Below the pieces are notes generated by a model that was given only the letters and a program-made list of their open reading frames with translations, searched no databases and was not told the DNA's origin. From assembly GCF_057098645.1 (NCBI RefSeq), contig NZ_CM169472.1: 64,000 bases of DNA. One strand, given 5' to 3'. Both the position numbers and the translations under genes were made by a program. Shown here piece by piece: positions 35,938 to 36,586 of the stretch; position 1 is the stretch's first letter; each line of letters starts with the position of its first letter.

Positions 35938-36057
35938 ATTTAATGAAGCATCTATCGCCGGTTACGATGCTTTTCTTAACGCAGCCTGAGCCTGTATATA
36001 AACTTGTCATTTCCTGATTTTGATATGCACATTCCAACATCAGAAGAAGGTTAAATT

Positions 36058-36219
36058 ATGGATGACAAACCATTGCAGGCTCTGGCCAATAAACTCAAAA
36101 CACCGGCTCAAGAAAGTCAGCGTAATGGCTTCTTCCGACTGCAACAGGTGAAGAATAACCAGCCCCGCATTACCGGTATCCCCGTCAACCATCAGGGGCC
36201 CCTGCCTGACATCGCCTGA
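36058..36219 (+). CDS. Hypothetical 53-aa protein upstream of the LRR gene (not in ORF track, below size cutoff)
   Basis: ATG 36058 preceded by gaagaagg RBS-like sequence; stop 36217-36219; competes with an antisense 95-aa ORF. Confidence 0.25.
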   Translation: MDDKPLQALANKLKTPAQESQRNGFFRLQQVKNNQPRITGIPVNHQGPLPDIA

Positions 36220-36586
36220 ACATATTCCCCCACGCAACCTGCCGCACTGACGTAGCCCACGCAATACGCGTTTCAGACTGCTCAGTATCTGTAGTGGCGT
36301 TTCATCCGCCTGTAGCACCGGATGCATGAGCGATTTCTTATAGTTATTCCTTTGCTTAATAACGATTATTTTCGGGTCGTTCGCTCTCGTATTTTCTTTA
36401 ATACGTCAGAGCTACCTGGGCCGTAATACAGCATGTACCAGACCCGACACGGCATTTCTGACCTGGGAAAAAGTCAACGATGAGTAGTTATATCAGCGCA
36501 AATGACGTCCTGTGGCTCCTTTGCGGTGACCACATTCACGTCTCCGGCGCTGCCAGAGGATATTTATTTCAAGGATACGTAGCATT

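Follow-up and report, generated by a model that had tools for sequence, protein, structure and literature searches.

In Escherichia coli K-12, the interval between dadX and cvrA encodes YmgM, a 67-aa protein detected by chromosomal SPA tagging (VanOrsdel et al. 2018; PMC6001520, Table 1). Mobile elements of the IS256 family are represented by an intact copy annotated as IS1414 family (L021 1502–2815, 1314 bp), on which we defined the terminus of the IS. An 8-bp target duplication (GCCGAATG) lies on either side of this copy, whose transposase has 402 aa and belongs to the IS256 family (NF033543, E = 7e-129). The other systems relevant here are the T3SS chaperone and accessory genes that lie beside effectors. 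We compared with them a locus of another E. coli strain, contained in a stretch of 64,000 nucleotides hereafter called the window. The gene order is emtA-ldcA-cvrA-[649 bp]-LRR gene-dadX-dadA. The 649 bp between the end of cvrA (35937) and the first base of the LRR ORF (36587) are 100% identical in the O145 strain RM9872.

The earlier note had drawn attention to two overlapping ORFs of 53 and 95 aa on opposite strands of this interval. The ORF listing reproduces both, including the exact peptide quoted for the first, and the RBS-like motif seen upstream of it is indeed present (GAAGAAGG at 36043–36050, 7 nt 5′ of the ATG). After dinucleotide shuffling of positions 35938–36586 (2000 rounds), 67% of the sequences contained an ATG ORF of 53 aa or more, and 8.5% one of 95 aa or more. 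As chance yields ORFs of this length, the presence of the two frames carries little information by itself. Neither is the stretch unannotated, as had been thought: RefSeq calls the plus-strand ORF in some strains (e.g., WP_157832600.1) and the minus-strand ORF in others, each as a "hypothetical protein" wherever annotated. The features discussed below are listed in table 1.

Table 1. Features of the cvrA-dadX interval (window positions unless another locus is named) and states of the site in other genomes
Feature	Position	Strand	Remarks
YmgM-like stretch antisense to the cvrA 3′ end	35809..35955	-	YmgM residues 20–67, no start codon
Hairpin AAGCATC/GATGCTT followed by TTTTCTT	35946..35977	+	Read from the sequence, directly 3′ of the cvrA stop; probable cvrA terminator
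Left end of decayed IS256-family (IS1414-like) element	35988..36104	+	blastn versus IS1414
95-aa ORF, chance frame antisense to IS remnant and spacer	36040..36327	-	Overlaps the 53-aa ORF; not conserved
53-aa ORF, transposase pseudogene fragment	36058..36219	+	Open by chance in the window allele
Second IS-homologous block	36121..36179	+	Equals transposase codons 84–103 (RDGTFEPQLVKKNQTRITGM)
Indel-rich, fast-evolving spacer	36180..36320	.	Divergence 7.8%, many indels
Better-conserved region 5′ of the LRR gene	36321..36586	+	Divergence 4.2%
LRR gene, 478 aa	36587..38023	+	LRR domain resembles SlrP/SspH2; no NEL domain
K-12 type site			3308 genomes; 35938–35994 and 37950–38023 (the 3′-terminal 74 bp of the LRR ORF) retained
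Compact type site	L005 2039–2094 (strain MS8345)		56 bp between cvrA and dadX
O157:H7 type site			IS3-family element in place of 36053–37907
L020 type site			Related deletion without the IS

We propose that the 650-bp stretch would be a composite non-coding region and not a pair of genes. From left to right, it would consist of the cvrA terminator region, an IS remnant of ~190 bp, a drifting spacer of ~140 bp, and ~265 bp of better-conserved DNA. An old internal deletion would have joined the RBS, the ATG, and the first ~16 codons of a transposase in frame to codons ~84–103, the 53-aa ORF then running past the IS-homologous codons to the first stop. On the other strand, the 95-aa ORF would be a frame left open by accident. 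Homology to the IS, the lack of frame conservation, and a gradient of conservation toward the LRR gene are each visible in the sequence alignments described below. We therefore hold it highly probable that the 5′ third is IS debris, the 53-aa ORF being a transposase remnant and the 95-aa ORF a chance antisense frame. The observation of the earlier note is correct and its biology is very likely ordinary, neither ORF being a working gene.

The segment directly downstream of cvrA lies outside the IS remnant, and K-12 has the same stretch. Its hairpin is missing from the consensus terminator scan because the loop is 13 nt long. The homology to the IS starts further on, exactly at the terminus GAGCCTG of the IS256-family terminal inverted repeat. 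The first block matches bases 1–121 of IS1414 with 77.7% identity (blastn, E = 1e-22) and other IS256-family copies with 80–82% identity (blastn). It holds the terminus GAGCCTGTA..., the promoter-like sequence TTGTCA-14-(TGa)TATGCA, the RBS, and the transposase start from the ATG at 36058 to codon ~16. The second block matches IS1414 322–380 (blastn, E = 3e-7) and L022 (79.7% identity, blastn, E = 8e-11), and ~200 bp of the IS are deleted between the two blocks. L018, L019, and L022, used as further IS references, display the same homology as IS1414. The window thus shares with IS1414 and its relatives the left terminus and its distance from the RBS and ATG, 77–82% DNA identity, the transposase start MD[DE]K.LQ.LAN..LKTP, and codons 84–103 (..Q.VK.NQ.RITG.).

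It differs from these elements in keeping only ~180–190 of 1314 bp, with neither DDE domain nor right end. The 649-bp stretch gave no match to IS1414 bases 381–1314 by blastn or tblastx. A right terminal repeat and a complete transposase with an IS256/Mutator-type DDE domain (NF033543, PF00872) are both absent from the window; with the right end missing, no target duplication is recognisable. The remnant cannot transpose. Allele L006 of the locus keeps 25 IS bases that are absent from the window, and the window therefore carries deletions relative to the IS. Changes specific to the remnant, among them the loss of 2 bp from the terminal repeat, are common to 13 out of 13 island alleles. We infer that the IS was already in place when the LRR alleles began to diversify and that its remnant is now inert.

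At the protein level, the 53-aa ORF aligns with transposase residues 1–48 and 73–103, the second segment with a BLASTP E value of 8e-6; the equivalents actually left in the ORF are residues ~1–20 and 84–103. Its ATG is the transposase ATG, as seen when MDDKPLQALANKLKTP is compared with MDEKQLQTLANELAKNLKTP and QRNGFFRLQQVKNNQPRITGI with RDGTFEPQLVKKNQTRITGM. Since the match to IS bases 1–121 spans both the RBS and the ATG, the motif upstream of the ORF is the transposase's own. As two blocks match IS1414 and nothing does beyond them, the ORF corresponds to an internally deleted, 3′-truncated transposase pseudogene.

Downstream of the remnant, the 36180–36320 spacer matches neither IS1414 nor L022 by blastn or tblastx. 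Mean pairwise divergence is 3.1% in cvrA, 7.2% in the IS remnant, 6.4–10.6% in the LRR ORF, and 2.9% in dadX, with intermediate segments as given in table 1. Owing to its divergence of 4.2% compared with 7–8% upstream, the segment next to the LRR gene is the only constrained-looking part of the leader. It contains a weak promoter-like sequence, TTCACG-18-GATATT, at 36535–36564 (8/12 consensus match) that is present in 13/13 alleles, and a Shine-Dalgarno sequence AAGGA at 36571–36575, 11 nt 5′ of the LRR ATG. The promoter and 5′ UTR of the LRR gene probably lie in this segment. Its two conserved halves are separated by a 19-bp indel polymorphism at 36430/36431 (ACT[TG][GA]TTCAG[AG]TCTGTTAC in L006, L008, L010, and L012). 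A MxiE-box-like motif, sought by eye, matches at ~9/16 positions at 36388–36410. A promoter and terminator consensus scan returned nothing significant.

The ends of ISs supply outward or hybrid promoters. The whole 550 nt could accordingly form a long functional leader, transcribed from an IS-derived promoter at ~36036 into the LRR gene, with the 53-aa ORF as an upstream ORF and the IS remnant co-opted as regulatory DNA. Terminator prediction gave none on the plus strand from 36030 to 36587, and the IS-derived extended −10 (TGaTATGCT or TATGTT) survives at the IS left end in 6/13 alleles. However, this −10 reads TATGCA in the window and in L002-type alleles, the spacer to TTGTCA being 14 nt in the window; the middle of the leader tolerates deletions of 29 and 159 bp; and the conserved promoter-like site is far nearer to the LRR start. 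A structured form of the cis-regulatory leader envisaged in the earlier note is not supported either: folding of the leader RNA is not unusual (z = −1.54 and +0.49), and an Rfam scan of 35000–39000 gave no match except a chance CRISPR-DR inside dadX. We consider a long functional leader improbable.

We aligned base by base 13 alleles of the locus, 84–99% identical to the window, the genomes carrying the island numbering ~840. The plus-strand frame is broken in ten of them: a stop at codon 27 (CGA to TGA, 36136–36138) interrupts it in eight, and frameshifts do so in two more, by a +1 insertion in L012 and by −1/−8 deletions in L014. The window and L007 alone have an unbroken frame of 53 aa, and L008 reads through to 65 aa. 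In the ten alleles where it is broken, the LRR ORF is intact or nearly so. Variable sites are distributed as 10/12/15 over the three codon positions, with no third-position excess. Searches of Pfam and NCBIfam returned no match to the 53-aa ORF, nor did it match the YmgM profile PF23693, which K-12 YmgM matches with E = 1.6e-51. Judged on these comparisons, the ORF is devoid of a catalytic domain and is not maintained by selection. It resembles T3SS chaperone and accessory genes in being a small ORF directly 5′ of a SlrP/SspH2-like LRR gene; it differs from them in belonging to no family, in deriving from a transposase, and in a reading frame that is not co-conserved with the LRR gene. The role of accessory or chaperone gene put forward for it is therefore abandoned, as it is an IS256-family transposase remnant interrupted in most alleles.

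These data bear equally on the idea that a real small protein is translated from the 53-aa ORF, whether as an accessory factor of the LRR protein or, like YmgM, as a lineage-specific microprotein. The RBS and ATG are good, the start cassette looks intact, and several hundred to more than 1000 database contigs carry intact 53-aa versions, besides the longer frame of L008. The peptide could still be made in this strain, as a sister IS cassette in K-12 yields the tagged protein YmgM (PMC6001520). Against this, the interrupted alleles include the common class of ~96% identity, the substitution pattern is not of the coding type, the IS-derived −10 of the window lacks its final T (TATGCA) and stands 14 nt from the −35, and no family match exists, PF23693 included. 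Transposase debris explains the whole sequence, and the chance of a genuine small protein is smaller still than that of a long leader.

The minus-strand frame varies from 42 to 139 aa across the alleles and from 50 to 139 aa in the database. It is altered by 1-bp indels in L012, L013, L016, and L017, and by deletions in L014 (−1/−8/−29 bp), L007 (29 bp), and L009 (159 bp). Its variable sites fall 25/19/18 by codon position over the 13 alleles, most of them at position 1. Homologues occur in E. coli only, with 55–75% amino acid identity for 84–97% DNA identity; a protein diverging faster than its DNA counts against selection on the frame. Pfam and NCBIfam gave no match. That this ORF is a real gene, annotated by RefSeq in many genomes and 125–139 aa long in divergent alleles, is hardly credible: it was open in 6/7 of the alleles first read (78–139 aa), PGAP calls it in several genomes, and few shuffles contain an ORF as long, but the indels, a start position that varies between alleles, the codon-position pattern, amino acid identity below nucleotide identity, the lack of a domain match or of a homologue outside Escherichia, and its position antisense to a transposase remnant all oppose it.

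The statement that at most one of the two ORFs is real thus holds in the sense that neither is, since no frame is conserved over the 13 alleles. Conservation of each frame among homologous loci was the check set by the earlier note, and its absence is the outcome said there to refute the proposal. Other small frames, a 34-aa ORF at 36322 and a 79-aa ORF at 36480, are not conserved either: L006 and L010 have lost the ATG or acquired a stop.

The origin of ymgM offers an instructive comparison. Its locus in K-12 (L004 1913–2185, K-12/BW25113) corresponds to window 35809–35994 plus an inverted IS cassette, and its translation reproduces the YmgM sequence exactly. The promoter-like region, the RBS, the ATG, and the first 8–9 codons are an IS256-family left end; the rest of YmgM (residues ~10–67) comes from the antisense strand of the cvrA terminator and 3′ end. 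Exactly at its terminus, the IS piece joins what remains of the deleted LRR gene, the final 74 bp. This ~100-bp K-12 segment, which resembles inverted 35988–36086, matches "IS256 family transposase" features elsewhere, beside nleG7 in O157:H7 prophages, on plasmids, and at up to 21 places per genome. The ymgM and 53-aa ORF loci have in common the cvrA-dadX interval and an IS256-family cassette comprising RBS, ATG, and MDDK(Q/P)LQA. They differ in that the K-12 cassette has the opposite orientation and reads into cvrA antisense, and in that nothing in the 53-aa ORF corresponds to YmgM residues 9–67.

The K-12 cassette is 96% identical to L022, 93–94% identical to IS1414-type copies, and 84.5% identical to the window remnant. 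Being 96% identical to a live-type copy versus 84.5% to the remnant, it is a paralogous, younger IS copy; with this identity and its opposite orientation, the window remnant is not an orthologous YmgM start cassette. A simple inversion of 35995–36075 as the origin of the K-12 segment was rejected, as the segment lacks every remnant-specific change. The most economical history would comprise two steps: a second, younger IS would have inserted in inverted orientation at 37949/37950, and a deletion would then have occurred between 7-bp direct repeats GAGCCTG. These repeats are found as the terminus of the old remnant and as the complement of codons 7–9 of the new copy. A query made of 300 bp of IS left end and the LRR 3′ end, representing the intermediate between island and K-12, was covered at 80% or more in no genome out of 5426.

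In the window, the YmgM-like stretch antisense to cvrA matches PF23693 positions 21–67 at 35809–35952 (E = 2e-31). PGAP annotates it as a "hypothetical protein" with ATA as first codon in several RefSeq genomes, and in several genomes marks cvrA (34201–35937, plus strand) as a pseudogene "missing C-terminus", whereas its 578-aa ORF is intact. Both calls look like an artefact of annotation propagation. The apparent conservation of YmgM residues 10–67 may reflect only that of cvrA on the other strand.

The LRR protein matches the SlrP model NF011897 with E = 2e-21, far below the cutoff. Its alleles in E. coli, Shigella, and unclassified Escherichia sp. are 77–97% identical at the protein level, all between cvrA and dadX. 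For a syntenic E. coli gene it is unusually polymorphic, compared with ~3% divergence in cvrA and dadX; its first 100 codons show 10.6% nucleotide divergence and in-frame indels. The ORF contains two repeat tracts, one at 36905–37055 in the N-terminal half with 12-nt periodicity and rich in E/K/L, the other at 37684–37887 near the C terminus with 9-nt periodicity, L-E/D repeats, and a weak match to Pfam LED_rpt. Independent loss or breakage of the gene has occurred many times: besides the four site types of table 1, its frame is shifted in W13-16 and interrupted by an IS3 at 37874 in RM9872. The most divergent island allele, of the L006 type, is that of Escherichia sp. MOD1-EC5189 (L024), in which the remnant is ~79%, the LRR gene ~87%, and the flanking genes ~96% identical to the window. 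This pattern suggests that the allele classes are old and that lineages may have exchanged them.

Out of 5426 complete E. coli genomes, most of 35400–38700 is present in 834, and 36180–36586 in 837, the latter always as a single copy at cvrA-dadX. The assignment of the stretch to an inserted module stands insofar as the stretch and the LRR gene travel together as a single variable unit in these 837 genomes. The term insertion fared less well. As the last 24 LRR codons are kept in the K-12-type "empty" site, this site is a deletion derivative of the island, that is, a secondary state. The compact 56-bp site could be a true, ancestral empty site, or else a replacement; it contains a hairpin (CGCTGGAT...ATCCAGCG) that is absent from the island and K-12 types. 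A scan of genome contigs with the LRR protein, meant to retrieve the locus of other species, yielded a single contig, which is E. coli-like contamination of a Collinsella MAG. In a CvrA protein search for outgroups, each of the 120 matches listed was a protein of E. coli or Shigella with ~100% identity. Matches in a plasmid search were chromosome-sized or non-mobilizable records, with no sign of a plasmid-borne module.

For annotation, one IS256-family remnant can replace two mutually exclusive "hypothetical proteins" in hundreds of genomes. In studies of the LRR gene, the promoter is to be sought in the ~265 bp 5′ of the start codon. YmgM, now a Pfam family in its own right, appears to consist of a transposase start joined to cvrA antisense; for small-protein biology, detection of a protein is no proof of function. 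By analogy with YmgM, there is a slim chance that the IS remnant is not inert and that its start cassette is still translated in some strains, where it would modulate the LRR gene. If so, the remnant would provide a microprotein confined to such strains, or else an upstream ORF or a promoter for the LRR gene, in parallel to YmgM, and the cvrA-dadX interval would represent a natural case of repeated gene birth from transposase start sites.
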